A stretch of 64,000 nucleotides of DNA, taken from NCBI GenBank assembly GCA_965116225.1, contig OZ220495.1:2261405-2325404 (forward strand), in the 5' to 3' direction. Positions 13,786 through 25,254 of this stretch are shown one piece after another. The notes beneath the pieces were generated by a model, which did no database searches, was not told where the DNA came from, and saw only the letters and a list, made by a program, of their open reading frames with translations. How positions within the stretch are numbered: position 1 is the stretch's first letter; every line of letters begins with the position of its first letter. Position numbers and translations under genes: made by a program. Source of the stretch: Dehalococcoidia bacterium. GTDB taxonomy: Bacteria > Chloroflexota > Dehalococcoidia > Bin125.

Positions 13786-13924
13786 GGCGGATGCTCTCCA
13801 AATTCGATTTGGTGCGACATGAAGTGACAACAGCTTAACCGAGCGTAATCCACACCGCGCGACTTCGCTTGTGAGACGGGTCAAGATTGGCTAGTATAAG
13901 ACGAGTGACTGAGAGGATAATCTA

Positions 13925-14539
13925 ATGAAAAGCGATGACCAAAACAACCTCGCAGTGAGAGTGATCTCCGAGAAGATCGCGCAACTGGAGCCGGACATCG
14001 CGTCCCAGGTCTCAGAAGCACGCCAAAGCCTGGCTGAGATGGTTCGGCTCCTGGAAGAGCAGCGAACGCTCCAAGGGGCGATTGAATCGTTGCAAGGAAC
14101 CAGGCAAGAGCCGGATATCGATGAGCGATGGGCGATGAGAAGCCGCGATCCTCTATTTCGCGCTCAGCGTGCGCTACGAGAGATCGACATGATCGAGCGT
14201 GACAGGGACCCCGAGCGTCGCCGCCCAGTCGCCCCTTCGGATCTGACTGTGAGAGGAAGACCGGGTGGCCAAAGCGGTGAAGAGCGCGCTGAAAAGCTAG
14301 ACATTGTCGCCTTCGCGCAAGAGTTCGCAACATCAAATGGCAACCTGGCGCGCCTGCCGGACTTGGCGGCGCTCATCGTCAAGCGTGACCCAAGCAGATA
14401 TCGGAATGTCGCCACCGCCCAAGCCTCGTTGTACTACCACCTCGGTAAGAGCGAGCTGTTCGAGAAGGTTCGCGCCGGCACGTTTCGCCTCATCGATCCA
14501 GCCGGCGCTGCCACAGAAAGAAATGGAGAAGAACGATGA
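13925..14539 (+). CDS. Hypothetical protein: coiled-coil N-terminus plus C-terminal Mrr_N-like winged-helix segment
   Basis: GAGAGGA RBS 7 nt before the ATG. Lower GC (about 55%) than flanks. C-terminus ...AQASLYYHLGKSELFEKVRAGTFRLID resembles the Mrr_N wHTH wing. Confidence 0.55.
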   Translation: MKSDDQNNLAVRVISEKIAQLEPDIASQVSEARQSLAEMVRLLEEQRTLQGAIESLQGTRQEPDIDERWAMRSRDPLFRAQRALREIDMIERDRDPERRRPVAPSDLTVRGRPGGQSGEERAEKLDIVAFAQEFATSNGNLARLPDLAALIVKRDPSRYRNVATAQASLYYHLGKSELFEKVRAGTFRLIDPAGAATERNGEER

Positions 14540-14582
14540 CTTAGGCCAATGCAGGAAGCAACGATCCCGAAGAAAGGAGCGA

Positions 14583-15026
14583 GTGTGGAAGAACGACTGT
14601 CCTCTACCGCTCGCCAAGATACGCGCAATCGCGCAGGAACGGAGGTACAGGGTGACAGAGCACCCATTCGACGATCAGGAACCGGAATCGCCCTTGAACC
14701 AGGTACGCGCAGCTCTAGATCGACTTGCGTCACAGTCGTTGGCGGCTAGTGACGCGCGACGATCTGTGTGCGAGCAATTGCAGGCGGCGATCGATGCCCA
14801 GAACTGGCACCGCGCGCATCGCGCCGCGCGAATGCTCGCCCGCGGTGATGCCCTCAGTCTCGTTCTATGGCTGGGGGCGCAAGAGCATATTGAGCGGCTG
14901 CGAGCGGCAGACGTCGAACGTTGTCCCTCGCATGATCCACTGGATGCTCAAGCGGCGATTCAAGAAGCAGAGCGGCTGCTCTCGCAGTCGCCCGACGACC
15001 GAAACTCGAAGGAGGAACCATCGTGA
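14583..15026 (+). CDS. Hypothetical protein (GTG start chosen; ORF is open from 14304 but would overlap upstream gene)
   Basis: ORF in frame 0. Motif KIRAIAQERRYRVTEHPFDD. The stop overlaps the next start (GTGA), indicating translational coupling. Confidence 0.4.
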   Translation: MWKNDCPLPLAKIRAIAQERRYRVTEHPFDDQEPESPLNQVRAALDRLASQSLAASDARRSVCEQLQAAIDAQNWHRAHRAARMLARGDALSLVLWLGAQEHIERLRAADVERCPSHDPLDAQAAIQEAERLLSQSPDDRNSKEEPS

Positions 15027-15346
15027 AACTGACCGAAGCTGAGCGCATGCTCCCATACGTGCTGTGTGAGCTGAAAATCAGAGGCCCAGAGCTGCGGTTC
15101 AGGCAGCTGGCAAACGCAGTTCGGCCGCGTATGACGCACCTTCTAACGGAGACCGACTTGCGTCCATACGACAGTGGCCAAATTCCTTGGGAAGTCAAGC
15201 TGAGCAGGTTCAAAGATGAGCTGCGCAAGCGCAGGCTGATTGATCCGCGCACTTCCCGGGGCGTGTATCGAATCACGCGCAAGGGATCGCAGGAGGTTGA
15301 AGATTGGCTCGCTGCGCTGACTGCTGCTACGGGACCGGATGCGTAA
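15023..15346 (+). CDS. Small Mrr_N-like winged-helix protein
   Basis: 107 aa, ...RLIDPRTSRGVYRITRKGSQ closely resembles the C-terminal wing of the Mrr_N wHTH domain. Start overlaps the upstream stop. Confidence 0.5.
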   Translation: MKLTEAERMLPYVLCELKIRGPELRFRQLANAVRPRMTHLLTETDLRPYDSGQIPWEVKLSRFKDELRKRRLIDPRTSRGVYRITRKGSQEVEDWLAALTAATGPDA

Positions 15347-15351
15347 CGACA

Positions 15352-15384
15352 CTTGCGGGCACCGCCATTGGCGGTGCCCGCAAG
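15352..15384 (+). terminator. Intrinsic-terminator-like hairpin (15-bp perfect stem cttgcgggcaccgcc / ggcggtgcccgcaag, 3-nt loop)
   Basis: Perfect inverted repeat beginning 6 nt after the TAA stop at 15346. No U-tract, which is common in high-GC genomes. Confidence 0.55.
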
Positions 15385-15938
15385 CTGTGTGAGATCGTTT
15401 GAGCGCTCAGATCGTTGATACTGTTTCACCCCCAGGCCGGAACACCTCTTTGGGCGATGGCCAGTTGGTTAGCGGTCAGAGCGGACGTGACTCGAACCGT
15501 GGCGGACGGCTATCCCTCGCAGATCAGCTGAGCCTGCCCTTCGTCGAACCCTATTCGCTCACCTGTCGCGCAGGGCTGCCACCTCCAGTCTCTCTGCTCC
15601 TGTAGGCGGGTGAGGTGGTTTGCGTTCAGGATGCCGGATTGGATCAGCAGGATTGCGGTATCTGCGTTTTCGACCGACATCGCCGATAACCAGCTCGTGC
15701 TGGCGCTGCTGGCATCGAAGTTGTTGAGCGCCTGCGTACCAACCGCCATTTGTTCTGGAGCCTGCCGCTTCCCCCGTTCCCGGCGGGCGCAGTCTACGCC
15801 CTGTCCGCGGAGTGGCCGGCGTGGGGTAGTCTCACTACCGTCGAACGAACGCAAGCAGGCGCGGGGAAATTCCCCGCGCCTGCTTGCTGCTGCGCTGGCT
15901 GTTGCCAGCGCTTGTCGGTCGACACGGCAGGTGAAGCG

Positions 15939-17243
15939 CTAGACGGCCTCGATGATCGTCGAGATGCCCATGCCAGCGCCGATGCACTGGGTGGCGAGAC
16001 CGTACTGGCTGCCGCTGCGCTTGAGCTCGCGCGCGACGGTGGTGACCAGTCGGGTGCCGGTGGCGCCCAGCGGGTGGCCGATGGCCAGCGAACCGCCGTT
16101 GACGTTCACCTTGTCCATCGAAATGCCCAGCTCCTGCACCGAGGGGATGACCTGCGCGGCGAAGGCCTCGTTGAACTCGACGCGGTCGATCTGCGCGGCG
16201 TCGATGCCGGCGTGCGCCAGCGCTTTGCGTGTTGCAGGTATCGGGCCCAGACCCATAATCTGCGGCTTGACGCCGCCGACGCCAAAGCCCGCGATGCGCG
16301 CCAGCGGTTCAAGGCCGAGCTCGTCCGCCTTGCGCTCGCTCATCAGCAGCGCCGCGGTGAAGCCGTCGTTGGTCGGGCAGCTGTTACCGGCCGTGATGCG
16401 AATTTCGCTCTGCGTGTGCGAAACGGTGCCGCGGACGGTGCGCAGAGCGCTCAACCCCTCGAAGTTCGTGCCTGGGCGGAAGCCCTCATCGACTTCGACA
16501 ACGCGCGTGTCGCCGCGCTCGTCGAGCAGCAAGTTGCCTTCCTCATCGAAGACGGGCATGTCGACCTCGATCGGCACGATCTCGCCCTGGTAGAAGCCGT
16601 TGGCCATCGCCTCGCCGTACTTGCGGTGCGATTCGACCGCGAACTCGTCCAAGGTCTCGCGCGAAATGTCGTACATCTCGGCTACGTTCTGCGCCGTCTG
16701 CAGCATCGAGCAGACCGGTGACGAGTCGAGAATCTCGTCCGGGATCGGCACGCTGAAGTAGTCGTTGTGGTTGGGCGCGAGGTTGCGCTGCGACTCGGTC
16801 ATGCTGTGGCGGTCCTGGTTGAACTCGGTAATCCGGTTCGGTTCCGCGCCGCCGCCGCCGCCAAGCTGGCGACCCATCCGCTCGACGCCGAGCGCGATGC
16901 CGACGTCAATCGCGCCGACCATAATCTCCTGCGCCACGCGATGCATCGTCTCCATCGAGGAACCGCACTGGCGGTTCGAGTCGAACGTGCAGACCGACTC
17001 GGGCAGCCCGGCCAGTCGCACGATGTGGTTGGCGCCGATACCGGCCAGCTCCGCCACGCCGCCGACGCAGCCCATGCCGACATCCTCGATGTCGTGCGGA
17101 GATAGCTGCGGGTAGCGGCCGAGCAGTTCCTGGAGCACTTGGACGGCGATCGTGTCCAGCCGGGTCGCCGTGAACGCGCCGCGCCCGCCGCGCGTGAAGG
17201 CGGAACGTGCGCCGTCGACGATGACGACATTCTGCATTTCCAT
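15939..17243 (-). CDS. Thiolase-family acetyl-CoA C-acyltransferase
   Basis: 434 aa, N-terminal VVIVDGARSAFTRGGRGAF and active-site Cys region NRQCGSSMET typical of thiolases. Confidence 0.8.
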   Translation of the reverse strand: MEMQNVVIVDGARSAFTRGGRGAFTATRLDTIAVQVLQELLGRYPQLSPHDIEDVGMGCVGGVAELAGIGANHIVRLAGLPESVCTFDSNRQCGSSMETMHRVAQEIMVGAIDVGIALGVERMGRQLGGGGGAEPNRITEFNQDRHSMTESQRNLAPNHNDYFSVPIPDEILDSSPVCSMLQTAQNVAEMYDISRETLDEFAVESHRKYGEAMANGFYQGEIVPIEVDMPVFDEEGNLLLDERGDTRVVEVDEGFRPGTNFEGLSALRTVRGTVSHTQSEIRITAGNSCPTNDGFTAALLMSERKADELGLEPLARIAGFGVGGVKPQIMGLGPIPATRKALAHAGIDAAQIDRVEFNEAFAAQVIPSVQELGISMDKVNVNGGSLAIGHPLGATGTRLVTTVARELKRSGSQYGLATQCIGAGMGISTIIEAV

Positions 17244-17382
17244 CGGTCGTTCCTTTCTGGCGGGCCATGCCAGATGGCTCGCCGTCTGTCTGCGTGGTTG
17301 TCACACCACAATGTAACGTCACATAGTCTAACGCTCTGACGCGCCCTAGTACCATCCTCGGCGAGCGCCGCGACTGTTGTCG

Positions 17383-20300
17383 CTAGAGGTCGAGTGTGCC
17401 TGACGCGGCAGGTTGCGATTTGGGCGGTTTCCGCTCTGCGTCGGACGGACTGGGCAGCTCAGCCGCCGTCCACAGTTCCGATTCGAGCACCGCATCCAGC
17501 AGCGCCCGTCCCGTCGGCTCGAGGTCGATGGTGCGCTCGATCACCCAGAGCAATTCCAACAGCTCTTCGCTGAACTCCCATCGCTCTGGCCGAATGTCGT
17601 CGAGCGGCGACGATTTCTTGCCTTTGCGATCCCGCATCCGATAGCCCAGCCATGATCGCACGATCTGTAACCCCGACACCGAGTATTCGTACACCGCTCG
17701 CGGCACTGGTCGGAATTCGCCCTCGCCCACATGCAGCGTCAAGGTCTGCTCGTCGTAGTGGAACGAGTTTGGATATTCCGACTGCGGCACCGCCACCGCG
17801 CAGCGGGCGTCACCCTGCGGAACCGTGCCGTCGTCCTGCGGACCGGCGAACCGCTCTCCGTACGTATGCAGATGGATCAGTTGTCGCCCGTGCTCGGCGA
17901 CGCGCATGAACAACTCCCGATCCTTGCTGATCGGCAAGCGCGGCGGCGGCAACTCGAGCTCGTCCCAGAATCGCTCGACGTAGGATGGTTGGGCGAGGAT
18001 GCCATAAGCGTAGGCGAAGAGGTCTTCCGGCCCCGTGTCGAGTATGTCGAGAATGCCGGCAGTCACATTGGCTTGAGTTCCCGCCGCGTCTCGGTAGAGG
18101 GGGATGACATCCTTGGCACCCCGGCCGCAGAAGTGATCGAGATCCGGAACAGCGCTCGCTGCGATCGCCGCAGGCCCCTTGCCCAGCACTTTTGTCAGTA
18201 GCGAAGTCATATAGACCTGATTTGAGCTATATGCAACCCATAGTGATGGTCCGGGTCGATCAATAAGCCTTGTGTCTGCAATAATGTACTGTCTGTCCCA
18301 TGAGCGTAGCGTGTACTGCACTATATGGGGCATTGGTTCAGGTTTCTTGACATCATATATTGATACGAGCCTGGCTCCCTGTTTATCCAAGGGCATCGGC
18401 TCGTCATCGACCTTACGACCAGTCGATCGACTCACAAATAGCATTTCACGCTGACTGTTCTCTGATTTTGTCAGAGCTCGCCAGCGCGCGCTAAGTATAT
18501 TAGTCGTCTCTCCAATTGGCCAAGTTCTACCGACCTTGACGCCGGACTGTTGCCAGGGGAATACGTCGTTGACCTCCGGCCAGTCGAAGTAAGCGCCTGT
18601 GCCGATCGGGTAGAACGGATCGGTCCAGGCGTCTGAGCAAGGTTGCCAATCGAGATCGGCAAGCGTTCGAATCTCGTTAAGCTGCGCGAGCTTGGCTTCG
18701 GCGCTGCCGCTGAGCTTAACCTTGCTGACGACAGCCGGGCGCTCGGAGTCTGCGTCGCGGTATCGCACGCCGATCGCAATCGCCACGGGAGAGCGGATGG
18801 CGAACACGTTGTCCGTCTTGCGAGCGCCGAGATTGTCGCCCTCCAGATCGATGATCCGCAGTTCGTCGAACGTCTGGCGCATCATCTGCCGCATGCCCGC
18901 AAATGCCGGTCCGCGCAGATATGAGGAGGCGGTAATGAAGGTGACGATACCTCGGTAGTCCGGCGATTCGAACACTTTCCAAAGCGCCCAGCGCCAGAAG
19001 TACACGTATGTGTTGTATAGATTCTTCAACTGGCCGCCTTCGCCCGCTTTGACGACCGGCTCGGTAAAGTCGCGCAGAATTCCAGCCTGTTCAGGCCCGA
19101 TGTCGCCGTGTACGACCCAACCGCCAGGCCCTTCCTTACCCGTTTCGGGTTCGCCCATTTTGCCGCGGTCGTAGGGCGGATTGCCGATGCAGACAGTGAT
19201 GTTGCGAGCGCGTTTCATCTCCTGCGCCGCTTTGCGATCGGCGGTTATAGCCTGTTGCAGCAGCGAAGCGTGAAACTCTTCCTCTGCCGTAGGCGATGCC
19301 AATGTATCGGCCAGATAGACTCGCGCCGACTGCCCGGTCGCTCCAACTTCGCGCAATCGCTGCGTGATCCGGAGTCGCGCGACGGCGTAGGGTCCCACCA
19401 ACAACTCGAACGCTTCCAGGCGCTCGGCCAAGCTGCTCATACGCTCTGCAACCGCGCCGGGTCCATAGCGTTGCGAGACCGTCGTTGCCGCTTGATCGAT
19501 GATGGCGAGCGGGTAGGTGCCGGTCCCCACGGCAGGGTCGAGGATGCGCACCGATGAATCCGCGAAGCCCAGTGGCCTGTCGAACCGGGTGCGAAGCAGT
19601 TCGTCGGCCAACCGCACCTGGCATTCCACTACCTCGATGGGCGTGAAATAGACGCCGCGATCCTTACGCAGGGCCGGATCATAGGCGGCGAGAAAGATCT
19701 CGTAGAAGTACAGCCAATAGTCAGTGGCGAGTTCCGTCTGCGGTTCCGCTATCGCGCCGATCACACGCTCCAACAGCGAAATGGGCATCAGCAGTTCGTC
19801 GCGGACGAGTGGGAGTTCCAGCAGCTGCAGCGCCGAAGCCAGCAGCGCATGTTCGCCTTCCAGTTTGGGAAGCGCCGCGTGGAGATCAAGCGACTCAGCA
19901 CCTTCGAACTGCGCCAGCAGCAGCGCATAGGTCAATGTCTGCGCATATGCGTCAGCGAATTGCGCGTCATCCGCCTCAGGGAAGAGGATGCCGCGCCATT
20001 CCGTCGCAAGTTCGCGCAGCGGTTTATTCCCCCGTCCCAGTGCTGATTGAACCTCGTCCCGCAGGATGCGGGCCAGCGGCGCGATGAATTCCGCGATGCC
20101 CTTCGGATCGCTAGGTGTCTTGGGCTGCCAGTTGACGAAGTCCGCCAATAGCGCCCGTAACTCGCTCAGCGAGTCAGGCCGTAAGGCGTTGGGACCGTCG
20201 CGAATATCCGTAGCGATTCGGACTCGAGCTTTTCGCTCACCCGTCCGATATAATGTCCACTCGGAGCCATCGGTATAGATCAGATTGGGCAACGCCGTAA

Positions 20301-20610
20301 AGCGTTTGAATTGTTCCAGGTTACTCTTCTTAAAACTCTCGGGTCGCGCGCCAATGTGCGGCGCCTTGAGTTCGATGTGACCGGTCAGTAGTCCGTCGAC
20401 GATCACGCCGATGTCGGGGCGACCATTCACATCGTCGTCGCGGACTTCGCTACGCCACGCGACTGTTGCGTTGACAAGCGGGCCAAACCGGCTGAGGAGA
20501 TCACCGACAAGTGGTTTGAGTTGGTCTTCTTCCTGCGCTCCGTGCAGGTTTGAGAATTTCTCCACGCACTCGTTGGCGAACTGCGAGGCGAGCTCTTTGA
20601 AATTTTGCAT
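17383..20610 (-). CDS. Single-polypeptide Type IIL/IIG restriction-modification enzyme (MmeI-like: N-terminal PD-ExK nuclease, gamma-class N6-adenine methyltransferase, C-terminal TRD)
   Basis: N-terminal RPDIGVIVDGLLTGHIELK (PD...ExK). Central DPAVGTGTY (motif I) and CIGNPPYDRG (motif IV, NPPY). About 1075 aa. Start taken at MQNFKE (ATG 20610). Confidence 0.65.
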   Translation of the reverse strand: MQNFKELASQFANECVEKFSNLHGAQEEDQLKPLVGDLLSRFGPLVNATVAWRSEVRDDDVNGRPDIGVIVDGLLTGHIELKAPHIGARPESFKKSNLEQFKRFTALPNLIYTDGSEWTLYRTGERKARVRIATDIRDGPNALRPDSLSELRALLADFVNWQPKTPSDPKGIAEFIAPLARILRDEVQSALGRGNKPLRELATEWRGILFPEADDAQFADAYAQTLTYALLLAQFEGAESLDLHAALPKLEGEHALLASALQLLELPLVRDELLMPISLLERVIGAIAEPQTELATDYWLYFYEIFLAAYDPALRKDRGVYFTPIEVVECQVRLADELLRTRFDRPLGFADSSVRILDPAVGTGTYPLAIIDQAATTVSQRYGPGAVAERMSSLAERLEAFELLVGPYAVARLRITQRLREVGATGQSARVYLADTLASPTAEEEFHASLLQQAITADRKAAQEMKRARNITVCIGNPPYDRGKMGEPETGKEGPGGWVVHGDIGPEQAGILRDFTEPVVKAGEGGQLKNLYNTYVYFWRWALWKVFESPDYRGIVTFITASSYLRGPAFAGMRQMMRQTFDELRIIDLEGDNLGARKTDNVFAIRSPVAIAIGVRYRDADSERPAVVSKVKLSGSAEAKLAQLNEIRTLADLDWQPCSDAWTDPFYPIGTGAYFDWPEVNDVFPWQQSGVKVGRTWPIGETTNILSARWRALTKSENSQREMLFVSRSTGRKVDDEPMPLDKQGARLVSIYDVKKPEPMPHIVQYTLRSWDRQYIIADTRLIDRPGPSLWVAYSSNQVYMTSLLTKVLGKGPAAIAASAVPDLDHFCGRGAKDVIPLYRDAAGTQANVTAGILDILDTGPEDLFAYAYGILAQPSYVERFWDELELPPPRLPISKDRELFMRVAEHGRQLIHLHTYGERFAGPQDDGTVPQGDARCAVAVPQSEYPNSFHYDEQTLTLHVGEGEFRPVPRAVYEYSVSGLQIVRSWLGYRMRDRKGKKSSPLDDIRPERWEFSEELLELLWVIERTIDLEPTGRALLDAVLESELWTAAELPSPSDAERKPPKSQPAASGTLDL

Positions 20611-20707
20611 TGGTAAGAGAAGGGACGCGCCGACTGGTATTGCAAACTGAGCCGGACTCCGCACGGAGCCCGGCTCAGCTTATGGCGCCTACCGATTTGT
20701 CGGAGGG

Positions 20708-21889
20708 TTAGACCTCGAAGTGGTAGACCTTGGCGGCGTTGCGCTGGAGGACGTTGAGCAGGTCCGCCTCGGGCAGCACGCTGAGGACTTCCTCGACGTG
20801 CTCCTTCGGATTGCGCGCTACACTGTTCGGGCCCGGCGACATCGACGTCGGGTGCGGGAAGTCGGTCTCGAACATCAGGTTCTCCGAGCCGATCTGCTCG
20901 ATCGCCCTGAGCACCGAGGCCTCTTCGAACCAGAAGCAGCCGTAGCACTGGCGCTTGAAGTACTCCGAGGGCAGCAGGTCCATCTCGGGATGTTCCTCGC
21001 GGCAACCGGAGTTCAGCCACTGCCAGTCCATCGCCTCGAGCAGGTAGGGAATCCAGCCCACGCCCGACTCGACCGAGACGAACTGCAGCTCGGGGAAGCG
21101 GTGGCACATGCCCGAGAGGATGATGTCGAGAATCGCGTTCGAATTGTCCAGGAACAGCTTCACGGTCGACTTGGCGTAGGCGGCCTGGCGACCGTTGTCG
21201 ACGGTCACGTTACGCAGCTCGGTGAGGTCGCCGGAGCCGATGTGAAAGTTGATCGACAGGCCCATGTCCTGCGCCTGATTCCAGATCGGGTCCCAGTGCG
21301 GCTCGGTGATGCGCGGCAGGCCGAAGGTGTGCGGCTGATTGGTCATCAGCACGCCCCGGTGTCCGCGGTCGTAGGCGCGCTGCATCTCGTCGACGCATGC
21401 CTGCACGTCCCAGAACGGCATCGCCATGATCGGGATGAAGCGCGACGGCTCGACCGACGTCCACTCGACCAGGAAGTCGTTGTAAGCGCGCACGCAGTCC
21501 AGTCGCAGCTCGTCGTCCGTCATCTGCAGGAAGTTGCCGGAGCCGAAGCCGCCCACGTTGGGGTAGACGACTTGGGCGTACATGCCGTACTCGTCCATCC
21601 GTTCGAGCCGCTCGCGGATTTCCCAGCTGCCGTGGTCGGCTTCCTGCAGGCTCGGCGGATGATTCGGCGGCGGCGATTTCCAGCCCGCCATCGCCGCGCC
21701 GGCCGTGGGCATGAACTTCTTGCCGCCCATTACCCAGCGGTCCTCGTTGATTTCGGGATCGAAGATCACGTGAGGCACGAGGTCGCCCCACTTCCTGGTC
21801 GAGATCCGGTCGGTCCACAGCGTCTCCGGCTCGGAGACGTGGGTATCGGAGTCGATCACCTTGATCCGGTCGCAGATCATCTCAGCCAT
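20708..21889 (-). CDS. Amidohydrolase-2 (ACMSD-like) family metal-dependent hydrolase/decarboxylase
   Basis: 393 aa, IDSDTHVSEPETLW N-terminus and the TIM-barrel amidohydrolase_2 pattern (HIGSGD..., FETDFPHP). Confidence 0.7.
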   Translation of the reverse strand: MAEMICDRIKVIDSDTHVSEPETLWTDRISTRKWGDLVPHVIFDPEINEDRWVMGGKKFMPTAGAAMAGWKSPPPNHPPSLQEADHGSWEIRERLERMDEYGMYAQVVYPNVGGFGSGNFLQMTDDELRLDCVRAYNDFLVEWTSVEPSRFIPIMAMPFWDVQACVDEMQRAYDRGHRGVLMTNQPHTFGLPRITEPHWDPIWNQAQDMGLSINFHIGSGDLTELRNVTVDNGRQAAYAKSTVKLFLDNSNAILDIILSGMCHRFPELQFVSVESGVGWIPYLLEAMDWQWLNSGCREEHPEMDLLPSEYFKRQCYGCFWFEEASVLRAIEQIGSENLMFETDFPHPTSMSPGPNSVARNPKEHVEEVLSVLPEADLLNVLQRNAAKVYHFEV

Positions 21890-22097
21890 CGTAGTCAGTC
21901 CCTTTCGCTGGCGCGGTGTGTCGGAGTGTCGTCAGGTTAGCACTTCGCCCGCGCGGATCCAATGGACGGATCCAATCCCAGTCGTCCCGCGCGGTCCTGC
22001 CGCCAGCAGGCAAGACGCGGCGATCGCCGTTCCGATCGAGAGAGACAGCTGCGGGGCCTCAGGCGCTAGATTGACTGAACCAGTTCGAGGAGGTGCT

Positions 22098-22646
22098 GTG
22101 GTGCTGGTGCGGATCGCGGGGCTGCTGATCCTTCTGGCGTTGGCGTCACTAGCCAGCTATGCCTGCGGGTTCGGCGATCCTCTTGATCGGCTGATGATCA
22201 CCGGCGTTGACGAACCGGTTGTCGATGACGCAGTCGAACTGCCTCAGACGTTGGGCTGGCGTTCTGCGACGTCGTTGATGTATTGGCCGTATTTCGATCA
22301 GCGAGAGTATCGTGGCGAGATATGCAACGAGGCGGTAGAGGATGATTATTTTGAAGGCGAAGAACCTGATGATCCAGGTGATCCGATTGATCTGGGAACC
22401 GTTAGGGACGATGACGTATGGGATGGGCTGAATGATCAGTTGTCGAAGTATGCAACGGACGAAGAGAGCGTCATTCAGCACATCTGGATTGAGCAGTTTC
22501 GCGTCGTAGTATTCATGGCCCGTTCCAGCGCAATCGCCTGGCCAAGCGGAACAGCCATTGTTTCAGTGAGCGAGTTTGTACTGTTTGACGCCGACCCTCC
22601 CCCCAACTGGCAGGTGACCGACAGCGGCTCTCTGTTTCTGTGCTGA
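22098..22646 (+). CDS. Small secreted acidic hypothetical protein (signal peptide), low-GC
   Basis: GAGGAGG RBS 5-7 nt before the GTG. VVLVRIAGLLILLALASLASYA signal-like N-terminus. Asp/Glu-rich middle. GC about 48% against about 67% surroundings. Confidence 0.5.
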   Translation: MVLVRIAGLLILLALASLASYACGFGDPLDRLMITGVDEPVVDDAVELPQTLGWRSATSLMYWPYFDQREYRGEICNEAVEDDYFEGEEPDDPGDPIDLGTVRDDDVWDGLNDQLSKYATDEESVIQHIWIEQFRVVVFMARSSAIAWPSGTAIVSVSEFVLFDADPPPNWQVTDSGSLFLC

Positions 22647-22781: not shown

Positions 22782-24779
22782 GTGCCTGTGGCATTGAGTA
22801 GACGCTCGAGGAACTCGCGGGCGTGCGGACACGCGGTCGATCGGGCGGCGCAGTCGCGCCCGTTCGACGAGCAACGGCCGCTCGGTATCGACCTGCCCGT
22901 TCGCACCAAGCGGCTGATTATCGTCGGCGCGATGTTGAGCATGTTCATGTCGGCGCTCGAACAGAGCGTGGTCAGCCCGGCGATGCCGCAGATCGTCTCC
23001 GACCTGGGCGGCCTCGATCTGTACCCCTGGCTCGTCCAGGCGTTCATCATGGCGCAGGTCGTCACGATCCCCATCGCCGGCACGGTCAGCGACGCGTTCG
23101 GGCGTAAACCGGTACTGCTGGCTGGATTGAGCGTGTTCCTGATCGGTTCTGCGCTGTGCGGCTTCGCGCCCGGCATCTACGAGCTGATCGCCTTCCGTGT
23201 CGTGCAGGGCGTGGGCGGCGCGATCCTGGTGACGGCCACGTTCTCGGTCGTCGGCGACCTCTACGCGCCCGCCGAGCGGGGACGGTTCATCGGCCTGTTC
23301 GGCGGGGTCTTTGCGCTCAGCAGCCTGATCGGCGCGCCGATCGGCGGCGTCTTGACCGAGGCGCTCAACTGGCGCTGGGTGTTCTGGATCATGCTCTTCC
23401 TGGGGCCGTTCGTGCTGGCGGTGATCGCGCTGAAGATGCCTTGGCTGCGCCCGCCGAAGCGCGCCTTCCGGATCGACGCGGCGGGCGTGCTGATGCTCTC
23501 GATCATGCTGATCCCGGCCATGATCGCGCTCAGTCTCGCGTCGCGCTGGGGTTGGCTCGCGCCGCAGACGCTGGCGCTGTTCGCCGTCTCCGCCGCCGCG
23601 CTGCTGCTCTTTATTCGTGTCGAGCGTCGCGCCGAGCAGCCCATCGTCCCGCTGCAACTGTTCAGGATCCAGACCATCGCCACCGCGGCGGTAGTCAATT
23701 TCTTCATCGGCGTTGGCATGATGGGCGTCTTCGTCTACATGCAGTTCTTCCTGCAGGTCGGTATCGGCGCCGACGCAGCGACTGCCGGTCTGATCATGGG
23801 ACCGATGATCCTCGTCTCGGTCGCCGGGTCGGTCATCTCGGGGCAGATCATGTCGCGCAGCGGACGCTACAAGTATCTGGCGGTGACCGGTTCGTTGATG
23901 ATGTTCGCCTCGATGTTGCTGCTCTCGACCATGACGCGCGAGACCACCATCCCCGGCGTGCTGGGCCGGATGTTCCTGTTCGGCGCCGGGATGGGCCTGA
24001 TGATGCCGGTGATGTCGATTGCCTCGCAGAACGCCGCGCCGCAGCGTTATCTGGGCATCGTCTCGGCATTCAGCCAGTTCTTTCAGCAGGTAGGTGGCGT
24101 CATTGGCATCGGCGTGGTCGGAGCGCTCTTCAACGCGCGGCTCGCCGATGGGCTGATGCAGCGGCTCGCGTCCGATCTGGTCGAGATCATTCAGCCGGAA
24201 AAGCTGGTCGATCCGCTCTTTCGGGAGTCATTGGTGCAAGATCTCGGCTCCAACGTCTGGGCAGTGGCTGAACCCGAAGTGCAGACCGCCGTGGCGACGG
24301 CGATCACCGACAATTTCCTGCTGGCCGCGGCCATCGTCCTGATCTCGGTCCTTGCGATCCTGCGGATGCGCGAGCTGCCTCTGCGCAGCGCAAATTCGCC
24401 GTCTGCTCCGACGGTGAGCACCGAGCGCCCCGATAGATCGCAGGACGATGATCCTGCTCCCATCGCGCCGCCGATTGATGCGGCGGGCGATAGTGGTTCG
24501 ACCGTGCTAGTGCTTCGGGACCTGCACGGTCTACAGCTGCGCGGGCAGGTTGCGGCGGAGACCGTAGTGGGCGCTGGCTCCTCATCCCTACCGGCCGAAT
24601 GCCAGGCCGTCGGTGCCCCCAGTTTGCGCCGAGTAGTGTTTGCCAGCGCCGTAATCGGCGCCGGGGTTGGTTTGGCGTTGGCGTTGGTCGGCGAAGCAAC
24701 CCCTCCGGCTAGCGCGCACCGGTGGCCTCTGCGCGCGTCTAGCCGCCGCATTGACCCGCGACCACGACGATCAGGGTAA
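22782..24779 (+). CDS. MFS transporter, DHA2-like (14-TMS drug:H+ antiporter type) with long low-complexity C-terminal tail
   Basis: MFS signatures (GTVSDAFGRKPVLLAGL...FRVVQGVGGA), many TM helices. About 150 aa of Pro/Ala/Ser-rich C-terminal extension. Start uncertain. Confidence 0.75.
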   Translation: MPVALSRRSRNSRACGHAVDRAAQSRPFDEQRPLGIDLPVRTKRLIIVGAMLSMFMSALEQSVVSPAMPQIVSDLGGLDLYPWLVQAFIMAQVVTIPIAGTVSDAFGRKPVLLAGLSVFLIGSALCGFAPGIYELIAFRVVQGVGGAILVTATFSVVGDLYAPAERGRFIGLFGGVFALSSLIGAPIGGVLTEALNWRWVFWIMLFLGPFVLAVIALKMPWLRPPKRAFRIDAAGVLMLSIMLIPAMIALSLASRWGWLAPQTLALFAVSAAALLLFIRVERRAEQPIVPLQLFRIQTIATAAVVNFFIGVGMMGVFVYMQFFLQVGIGADAATAGLIMGPMILVSVAGSVISGQIMSRSGRYKYLAVTGSLMMFASMLLLSTMTRETTIPGVLGRMFLFGAGMGLMMPVMSIASQNAAPQRYLGIVSAFSQFFQQVGGVIGIGVVGALFNARLADGLMQRLASDLVEIIQPEKLVDPLFRESLVQDLGSNVWAVAEPEVQTAVATAITDNFLLAAAIVLISVLAILRMRELPLRSANSPSAPTVSTERPDRSQDDDPAPIAPPIDAAGDSGSTVLVLRDLHGLQLRGQVAAETVVGAGSSSLPAECQAVGAPSLRRVVFASAVIGAGVGLALALVGEATPPASAHRWPLRASSRRIDPRPRRSG

Positions 24780-25254
24780 TTACGATCAACGCGGAGGTGA
24801 GTACCCCCACCGCAAATCCACTGTCGCCCTCGCTAGGCGCTCCGGCGGTCTCGCGTCGTCGCGCGCGTTCGAATCGGTCTCGGTAGATGCCGCGCACGGC
24901 TCTCGATGTGCGCGTTCGACGGGTTTCTACGCTAAAGGCGGCTTGCGGAATCGGCGATTCGGGAATGGCGCCGTCGCGCGGCAGCAATCGCCAGTAGCGC
25001 AGGCGAAACTCTTCGTCGGTCTGGATTCCCTTGCGTAAGTTGCAGGCGGTGCAGAGCAACTGCAGGTTGGCGCGCTCGTTGTCGCCGTTGCGACTCACGG
25101 GCCACTTGTGGTCGATCTCGAGAGAACGACTGCTCATTCGACGGCCGCAGTATCGACAGCGTCCCTGTTGTTCGATGAACAGGGCGTGCCGCACCTGCGC
25201 CGGGAAGATGGTTCGCCCCTGAGTGGGAATCCCGCGATCGTCCTCGACCGGCAT
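24739..25254 (-). CDS. HNH endonuclease-domain protein with C-terminal transmembrane anchor
   Basis: CRYCGRRMSSRSLEIDHKWPVSRNGDNERANLQLLCTACNLRKG gives a complete HNH motif (C-x2-C...H-x...N...C-x2-C). C-terminus FAVGVLTSALIVITLIVVVAG is hydrophobic. 3' end overlaps the MFS 3' end by 41 nt. Confidence 0.55.
   Translation of the reverse strand: MPVEDDRGIPTQGRTIFPAQVRHALFIEQQGRCRYCGRRMSSRSLEIDHKWPVSRNGDNERANLQLLCTACNLRKGIQTDEEFRLRYWRLLPRDGAIPESPIPQAAFSVETRRTRTSRAVRGIYRDRFERARRRETAGAPSEGDSGFAVGVLTSALIVITLIVVVAGQCGG

Follow-up and report, generated by a model that had tools for sequence, protein, structure and literature searches.

The stretch of DNA analysed here (henceforth called the window) comprises 64,000 nucleotides of a Dehalococcoidia bacterium (assembly GCA_965116225.1, contig OZ220495.1, forward-strand positions 2,261,405 to 2,325,404). 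Between a thiolase gene and an amidohydrolase gene, it encodes a 1075-amino-acid (aa) restriction-modification (RM) protein, which is very probably a stand-alone single-chain enzyme of the Thermus family, in the subfamily of TspGWI, TaqII and TaqIII. The gene, its domains and motifs, and the evidence by which each was delimited are given below; the methyltransferase is predicted to use S-adenosylmethionine (SAM), and the target-recognition domain is abbreviated TRD.

17383..20610, minus strand: complete RM gene, stop codon included, for a 1075-aa bifunctional restriction endonuclease-methyltransferase (open reading frame and translation)
20206..20610, minus strand: N-terminal PD-(D/E)xK nuclease domain, residues 1-135 (weak Pfam HSDR_N match at 57-127, fold model, colinear with the TaqII nuclease)
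20365..20418, minus strand: nuclease catalytic motif P65-D66-X13-E80-L81-K82 (invariant in 45 homologues)
19711..20205, minus strand: all-helical, HsdM-like connector, residues 136-300, joining nuclease to methyltransferase (helices at 145-310 in the model)
18571..19710, minus strand: gamma-class N6-adenine methyltransferase domain, residues 301-680 (Pfam N6_Mtase and weak Eco57I; aligns with DrdV, LlaGI and LlaBIII)
19519..19539, minus strand: SAM-binding motif I DPAVGTG, residues 358-364 (invariant D358, P359, A360, G362, T363 and G364)
19171..19182, minus strand: catalytic motif IV NPPY, residues 477-480 (invariant; counterpart of the TspGWI NPPY)
17557..18567, minus strand: TRD of the Type ISP kind, residues 682-1018 (Pfam Type_ISP_C, PF18135, E = 8e-73; alignment with the LlaGI TRD)
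18520..18555, minus strand: WQQSGVKVGRTW, residues 686-697, a loop predicted to read bases (opposite TaqII S683/E686/K688 in the alignment; motif position 2)
18238..18264, minus strand: IDRPGPSLW, residues 783-791, a loop predicted to read bases (opposite TaqII S776/R777/R779 in the alignment; motif positions 0 and 1)
18109..18147, minus strand: PDLDHFCGRGAKD, residues 822-834, a loop predicted to read bases (opposite TaqII H817 and S820-x-R822 in the alignment; motif positions 3 and 4)

Integrity and domain architecture of the gene

The uninterrupted open reading frame (ORF) extends over 17383..20664 on the minus strand and counts 1093 codons from an upstream in-frame GTG. Translation probably does not begin at this GTG (20664); the Met at 20610 yields 1075 aa, and the N-termini of homologues align there. 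The RM gene is real, far beyond chance, because the protein matched a PADLOC model over its full length (REase_MTase_IIG, PDLC03631, 1078 bits, residues 5-1069) and has more than 6000 relatives in the databases, the best 120 of which are 56-75% identical over the full length. Neither frameshifts nor tandem or simple-sequence repeats hinting at phase variation were found when the gene was scanned. Against the syntenic ortholog on the chromosome of another Dehalococcoidia metagenome-assembled genome (MAG; OZ242034.1, locus L010), the ratio of nonsynonymous to synonymous divergence (dN/dS) was 0.13-0.20 in each domain (nuclease 0.15), i.e., all domains, the nuclease included, are under purifying selection. 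The low ratios in every domain, together with the absence of frameshifts and of phase-variation repeats from the gene, argue for a maintained and, as predicted from its domains, bifunctional protein.

Pfam was scanned at E <= 1 and yielded four families only: Type_ISP_C, N6_Mtase, HSDR_N and Eco57I. The Type_ISP_C match spans positions 1-340 of the 342 in the profile, and the weak HSDR_N match (57-127) covers the PD...ExK motif. Motif I comes before motif IV and the TRD forms the C-terminal part, an arrangement typical of the gamma class. Across 45 aligned homologues, D66, E80-L81-K82, D358-P359-A360-x-G362-T363-G364 and N477-P478-P479-Y480 are invariant. A first-pass annotation of the window, made from its letters alone, had placed a polypeptide of about 1075 aa at these coordinates and had described an N-terminal PD-(D/E)xK nuclease, a gamma-class N6-methyladenine (m6A) methyltransferase and a C-terminal TRD; the ORF, the Met at 20610 and the homologue N-termini bear out the former, and the invariant D66/E80/K82, the motif order and the N6_Mtase and Type_ISP_C matches the latter. 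All three strings that it quoted occur in the protein, at residues 64 (RPDIGVIVDGLLTGHIELK), 358 (DPAVGTGTY) and 474 (CIGNPPYDRG), and the disrupted catalytic motif that it had considered was not found, all catalytic residues being intact.

The AlphaFold (AF2) model has a mean predicted local distance difference test score (pLDDT) of 73.7. The N-terminal nuclease and connector reach 85-95, and the nuclease domain is modelled as an alpha/beta fold (pLDDT 85-95). A helical region equivalent to the connector has been described in TspGWI (about 130-320) and in DrdV. When known structures were ranked by fold, DrdV was the best match (full length, about 7e-27), followed by LlaBIII and LlaGI (E about 1e-23 to 1e-21), BpuSI (E = 2e-9), PglX (E about 6e-9) and, at about rank 30, MmeI (5hr4; E = 1.8e-6). 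By sequence (phmmer and PDB profile search), the only relatives of solved structure that could be reached were DrdV, LlaGI and LlaBIII, in each case via the methyltransferase-TRD unit.

Family assignment and predicted mode of action

A tblastn search of a plasmid collection retrieved plasmids p61 and p11 of Thermus aquaticus YT-1, with 44% identical residues across 97% of the query. With the 1105-aa p61 protein, BLASTP gave a colinear alignment over residues 25-1066 (754 bits, 466/1058 identical). The p61 gene encodes TaqII (1105 aa, GACCGA) and the p11 gene TaqIII (1101 aa, CACCCA), both of which cut 11/9 nt downstream of their sites and, as determined by SMRT (single-molecule, real-time) sequencing, place m6A on one strand only; TaqIII has been classed as Type IIC/IIL (PMC5587805). 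The annotated coding sequences (CDS) on p61 and p11 are 1105 and 1101 aa long, in agreement with the sizes of the two enzymes, and 44% identity to TaqII is the level of the non-Thermus homologues listed in Table 2 of PMC5587805. Members of the family from outside Thermus were thus already known, namely these homologues as well as RpaI and CchII.

Two subfamilies can be told apart by their motifs. TspGWI-type enzymes carry a PD-X13-E-X-K nuclease motif, motif I DPA[V/M]GTG and motif IV NPPY, and TspDTI-type enzymes an atypical D-EXE nuclease motif, DPACGSG and NPPW. In the window protein, all three motifs are of the TspGWI type, motif I (DPAVGTG) being identical to that of TspGWI, and it is a single polypeptide in R-Mh-Mc-S order with 1075 aa, as is characteristic of the TspGWI subfamily (~120 kDa). 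Mutagenesis of TspGWI, aimed at D58/E72/K74 and at N473, yielded nuclease-deficient and methylase-deficient enzymes; the equivalents in the window protein are D66/E80/K82, with the same spacing as the TspGWI triad, and N477. The subfamily is classed as Type IIC/IIG/IIS and, as only one strand is methylated, also as Type IIL. The gene organisation of the latter is present, as a single chain unites nuclease, methyltransferase and TRD while both a translocase and a second methyltransferase gene are absent; methylation of one strand only is predicted from TaqII and TaqIII. A single-chain Type IIG/IIL RM enzyme encoded by a solitary gene, as the first-pass annotation had proposed, is therefore what the full-length PADLOC Type IIG match, the identity to TaqII, the best fold match to DrdV and the invariant catalytic residues all point to, and we consider its placement in the TspGWI/TaqII/TaqIII subfamily very probable.

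The same annotation had named the protein MmeI-like, a label which holds for how the enzyme would work and fails for family membership. A true MmeI-family Type IIL enzyme would follow MmeI-type TRD rules and cut about 20/18 nt from its site, the cut position of MmeI. Domain order and functional class are alike overall, and MmeI is among the fold matches; however, none of the four Pfam matches is to an MmeI family and the TRD is Type_ISP_C, MmeI is absent from the phmmer and PDB profile-search matches, five proteins (DrdV, LlaBIII, LlaGI, BpuSI and PglX) outrank it by fold, and the closest characterised relatives, TaqII and TaqIII, cut at 11/9. Membership in the MmeI family is hence very improbable. 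With the label corrected, a cut at 11/9 nt is expected in place of one at about 20/18 nt, and the structures and recognition rules that apply become those of LlaGI, LlaBIII and DrdV instead of MmeI.

The Type_ISP_C match, the alignment of the methyltransferase-TRD with LlaGI (residues 303-1007) and the name "type ISP restriction/modification enzyme" that PGAP gives to homologues would also be consistent with a Type ISP enzyme, which translocates along DNA by ATP hydrolysis and cuts upon collision with a second enzyme. The RM protein has no SF2 ATPase, as it was found to have no helicase Pfam match, no Walker A and no DExH motif. About 300 residues precede its methyltransferase versus about 680 in LlaGI (alignment start at 303 versus LlaGI 685), and RefSeq gives this label also to TaqII, TaqIII and TspGWI, whose cutting is ATP-independent and at a fixed distance. 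With no ATPase, this candidate is refuted at the level of the sequence, and we assign it practically no probability.

The third alternative is a role as methyltransferase only, be it as a BREX PglX-like or MADS-like protein or as a domesticated epigenetic regulator, with the nuclease silent in vivo. The position of the gene amid housekeeping and metabolic genes, at a locus kept in a related genome, would fit such a role, as would the PglX structures among the fold matches (E about 6e-9), a weak NCBIfam MAD2 match and the incomplete cleavage typical of enzymes of this family. The nuclease residues D66, E80 and K82 are nevertheless invariant and the nuclease evolves at a dN/dS of 0.15. The best-scoring PADLOC model is that of Type IIG RM enzymes, matched along the full length, PglX is absent from the matches, mad2 reached only E = 0.008, and the NCBIfam scan of the protein gave sub-threshold matches only (MAD2 at 32 bits versus a cut-off of 720). 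No brx, pgl or mad genes lie nearby, and 81 loci encoding family members share no conserved partner. Such a role is improbable, and the first-pass suggestion that a database search might reveal a PglX-like methyltransferase lacking nuclease residues was settled by the same search results in favour of a Type IIG enzyme with its nuclease residues in place.

For a TspGWI/TaqII-type enzyme, the following course of action can be proposed from its relatives. The methyltransferase-TRD clamp would bind an asymmetric site of 5-6 bp, one adenine of which would be flipped into the NPPY pocket. In the presence of SAM, m6A would be made on that strand only, by which the host would be protected. On unmodified DNA, the tethered nuclease (D66/E80/K82, Mg2+-dependent) would cut both strands at a fixed distance downstream. 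This distance is 11/9 nt in all characterised family members, and a cut at 11/9 nt leaving a 2-nt 3' overhang is predicted here as well. Thermus-family enzymes are known for incomplete cleavage and for stimulation by SAM or sinefungin, and SAM would probably stimulate cutting by the window enzyme, too. In DrdV, methylation needs one bound site and cutting needs the assembly of several site-bound molecules; by analogy, cutting by the window enzyme would probably require such an assembly. This requirement would let methylation win at newly replicated sites of the host, and modification of a single strand would stay safe because cutting, unlike methylation, needs several site-bound molecules under the DrdV model.

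Predicted recognition loops and specificity

Base-reading positions have been mapped from LlaGI and LlaBIII onto TaqII (PMC5587805). Aligned to these, the three predicted loops of the window protein and of its L010 ortholog read as follows.

Position 2: TaqII SGVEFKRTW; window SGVKVGRTW (G694 for K688; K692 for E686); L010 SGVKVGRTW
Positions 0-1: TaqII SRPRP; window DRPGP; L010 ERPAP
Positions 3-4: TaqII H817, F-SSRGG; window D825, FCGR-G; L010 H, FRGSFG (TaqIII-type loop)

At the predicted specificity positions, the window protein thus has G694 for K688, D784/G787 for S776/R779 and D825 for H817, and because these residues differ, its recognition site probably differs from that of TaqII. In the published scheme, an Asp at position 3 pairs with G, and a loop of the form xxR pairs with G at position 4 (PMC5587805). 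D825 and C828-x-R830 would tentatively suggest a motif ending in ...GGA, as in TspGWI (ACGGA), and the H and RGSFG TaqIII-type loop of the L010 protein one ending in ...CCA. Low weight is given to the motif prediction, since the rules lacked a mutagenesis test when published and one of the loops falls in a low-confidence region of the model.

The window and L010 RM proteins are 75% identical. Identity drops to 38-55% over residues 721-800, and at the nucleotide level to 55-63% over window positions 18100-18550; the loop IDRPGPSLW sits within the stretch that is least conserved between the two. This concentration of divergence in the predicted base-reading loops suggests a different specificity for the L010 ortholog. 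Among 123 family members, 81 distinct three-loop signatures were counted, and H or D occurs with CGRG or RGSFG in all four combinations (34, 24, 14 and 12 members), a modular variation that fits what is expected of specificity determinants. It is a tentative reading, which we place somewhat short of probable, that the window and L010 alleles form a natural specificity-switch pair with different and possibly new sites, within a large radiation of Thermus-family Type IIL enzymes in Dehalococcoidia, in which the loop modules (H/D, CGRG/RGSFG, K/G) are freely combined. If true, such freely combined modules would amount to a readable recognition code for the Thermus family, and the combinatorial loops, together with allele pairs of the window/L010 type, could aid the decoding and engineering of specificity. 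This would be an incremental advance for specialists and no surprise, and the finding matters modestly.

Several points weigh against the assignment of the gene to an active TaqII-type enzyme and against the predictions derived from it. What is predicted for activity, site, cut distance and modification of one strand is drawn by analogy from relatives with no more than 44% identity. Compared with TaqII, the connector contains an insertion of 8 residues, which could move the cut distance. The structure model is only moderately confident, with pLDDT below 50 in parts of the TRD (671-696 and 785-851), stretches that contain one of the three loops predicted for recognition and adjoin the other two. 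The loop-to-base rules were a co-variation model that had not been put to mutagenesis when published (PMC5587805), and the motif prediction is weak, as the determinants of positions 1 and 2 in the window protein are not those of TaqII. A sigma-70 promoter scan recognised no promoter for the RM gene.

Genomic setting, history and comparison with known systems

The downstream neighbour of the RM gene is the thiolase gene (15939-17243, minus strand) and the upstream neighbour the amidohydrolase gene (Amidohydro_2, 20708-21889, minus strand). Genes for a copper amine oxidase, class III aminotransferases, an MFS transporter, a CoA-transferase and a penicillin amidase are found further away, as are those for ABC-transporter parts, ComEC, seryl-tRNA synthetase and EngA. 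No methyltransferase, specificity subunit, helicase or brx/pgl gene was found beside the RM gene, and none of the neighbouring gene families recurs in more than 6 of the 81 loci that encode family members, for which reason the gene is regarded as a self-contained unit. Its description in the first pass as solitary among metabolic genes, with no methyltransferase or specificity gene adjacent, was accurate. One further feature lies in the 97-nt spacer that separates the amidohydrolase stop codon from the RM start codon.

20647..20682, minus strand: stable hairpin (the spacer folds at -46.3 kcal/mol, z = -5.0)

Its stem is kept at L010:7940-7975 through changes on both sides (T-A to C-G and A-T to C-G). 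The hairpin is trailed by UUUG only and hence is no textbook intrinsic terminator. It is likely to act as a terminator or transcript boundary, so that expression of the RM gene probably depends on signals of its own. A scan for promoters and terminators near the ends of the RM gene gave nothing useful.

Additional observations were made around the locus. Past the thiolase lies a variable segment (13885-15938), ~2 kb long and of lower GC (0.57-0.60). It holds three small ORFs on the plus strand, all of unknown function, one of which (15023-15346) gave a sub-threshold match to the Mrr_N winged helix (E = 2.4e-5). The region 21861-22646, between the amidohydrolase and the MFS transporter, had no Pfam or PADLOC match; compared with L010, its longest ORF shows 57% protein identity, and nucleotide identity is 41-72% with gaps. 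Apart from the Mrr_N match, PADLOC and Pfam searches returned nothing reliable for the small ORFs of 13925-15346 and for 21861-22646. An HNH endonuclease gene (24739-25254, minus strand; 171 aa, Pfam HNH E = 2e-12) lies between the MFS transporter and an aminotransferase and is shared with L010 at 77% identity.

At L010, amidohydrolase, RM gene and thiolase have the same order and orientation as in the window. The two flanking genes are 98% and 96% identical in protein and 91-95% in nucleotide sequence. Synonymous divergence (dS) from L010 is 0.98 for the RM gene, 0.23 for the two flanking genes and 0.44-0.72 for other nearby genes. This contrast is no proof of allelic replacement, because of the values of the nearby genes and the strong codon bias of the two flanking genes, whose GC content at third codon positions (GC3) is an extreme 0.88-0.92; a swap of the RM allele by recombination is consequently not claimed, and the gene is read as an old resident that evolves fast. 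Since the ortholog occupies exactly the same locus, the RM gene is older than the split between window and L010 and no recent arrival.

The RM gene has a GC content of 0.597 and a GC3 of 0.69, versus a mean GC of 0.635 (sd 0.020) and a GC3 of mostly 0.75-0.80 for the genes of the window. It lies 3.9 points under its own flanks, and the L010 ortholog 4.3 points under its own. The deviation is real but modest. A GC deficit of the whole family was rejected, as the RM-minus-flank difference over 70 loci was -0.014 +/- 0.041. The genomic context was unrelated in 79 of the 80 other loci, and close relatives in other Chloroflexota genomes likewise stand in unrelated contexts; more distant members are found in Actinomycetota, Pseudomonadota and cyanobacteria and on plasmids. 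The family is horizontally mobile over long time-scales. The first-pass annotation had noted a composition lower in GC than that of the neighbours and had taken it to suggest acquisition. The former was recovered here. The latter has partial support only: acquisition as such is in keeping with the GC deficit and the unrelated contexts, and a recent arrival is contradicted by the ortholog at the same locus.

Differences beside the RM gene were also noted between the two genomes. At L010:11270-11829, between the RM stop codon and the thiolase, a putative endonuclease of the Uma2 family is encoded (~187 aa, PF05685, E = 3e-21); the window has only a 139-bp spacer there (17244-17382) and no Uma2 counterpart, i.e., an insertion/deletion difference. 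In place of the window's variable segment past the thiolase, L010:13340-17680 harbours a periplasmic-binding-protein gene and a complete restriction system (Dcm-like C5 methylase, Vsr, EcoRII-like). The thiolase thus has variable sequence on both sides, with defence genes in L010. At a further locus, L012, an Amidohydro_2 gene (L012:5795-6946) lies ~1 kb upstream of the RM homologue and is 40% identical to the window amidohydrolase; the locus is otherwise non-syntenic, and the proximity may be coincidence.

Overall, the RM gene is an ordinary, probably anti-phage gene of an already characterised kind. Dehalococcoidia or other Chloroflexota account for more than 40 of the 80 loci that species-representative genomes yielded, so that a family first defined in Thermus is common in uncultured Dehalococcoidia. 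Two family paralogues, L012 and L070 (57% and 55% identical to the window protein), occur on one Dehalococcoidia MAG chromosome (OZ252031.1), which recalls the TaqII/TaqIII pair of T. aquaticus. On plasmid pWG16 of Thermus sp. WG (L083, 12112-15415), a family member is annotated as two CDS, a "type I RM subunit M" (353 aa) and a "type ISP RM enzyme" (718 aa), and is probably a frameshifted or split gene. RefSeq (PGAP) names TaqII, TaqIII and ~20 full-length plasmid homologues "type ISP restriction/modification enzyme", none of which has the ATPase by which Type ISP is defined; the name appears to follow the PF18135 domain and is misleading for proteins that lack an ATPase.

Compared with TaqII, TaqIII and TspGWI, the window protein has the same R-Mh-Mc-S order, the same motifs (PD-X13-ExK, DPA[V/M]GTG and NPPY) and a similar size (1075 aa versus 1097-1105 aa), and it is likewise encoded by a lone gene without a separate methyltransferase or specificity gene. 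It differs in that the acidic C-terminal tail (~30 residues) of the Thermus enzymes is missing. Whereas the TaqII and TaqIII genes of pTAYT1_61 and pTAYT1_11 adjoin par or cop genes, the window gene is chromosomal and sits amid metabolic genes, and its host, unlike the Thermus hosts of the three enzymes, is a probably mesophilic member of the Dehalococcoidia (Chloroflexota). DrdV of Deinococcus wulumuqiensis (CATGNAC, Type IIL; PDB 7LO5, 7LVV), the best structural match over the full chain, is related in the sequence of its methyltransferase-TRD (profile E = 1.2e-45) and shares the order of nuclease, helical connector, methyltransferase and TRD; identity is only about 18-20%, however, and neither the nuclease nor the greater part of the connector is alignable at the sequence level. 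For the licensing of cleavage through assembly of several site-bound molecules, DrdV is the best mechanistic model at hand. LlaGI and LlaBIII, both of Type ISP, have a homologous methyltransferase-TRD (Type_ISP_C; LlaGI alignment over residues 303-1007), in which the DNA-reading loops fall at the same positions as those of the window protein. The latter has no SF2 ATPase/translocase and no coupler, and cutting is therefore expected at a fixed distance and not dependent on collision. With MmeI, the Type IIL prototype, functional class and domain order are shared, whereas the sequence family differs.

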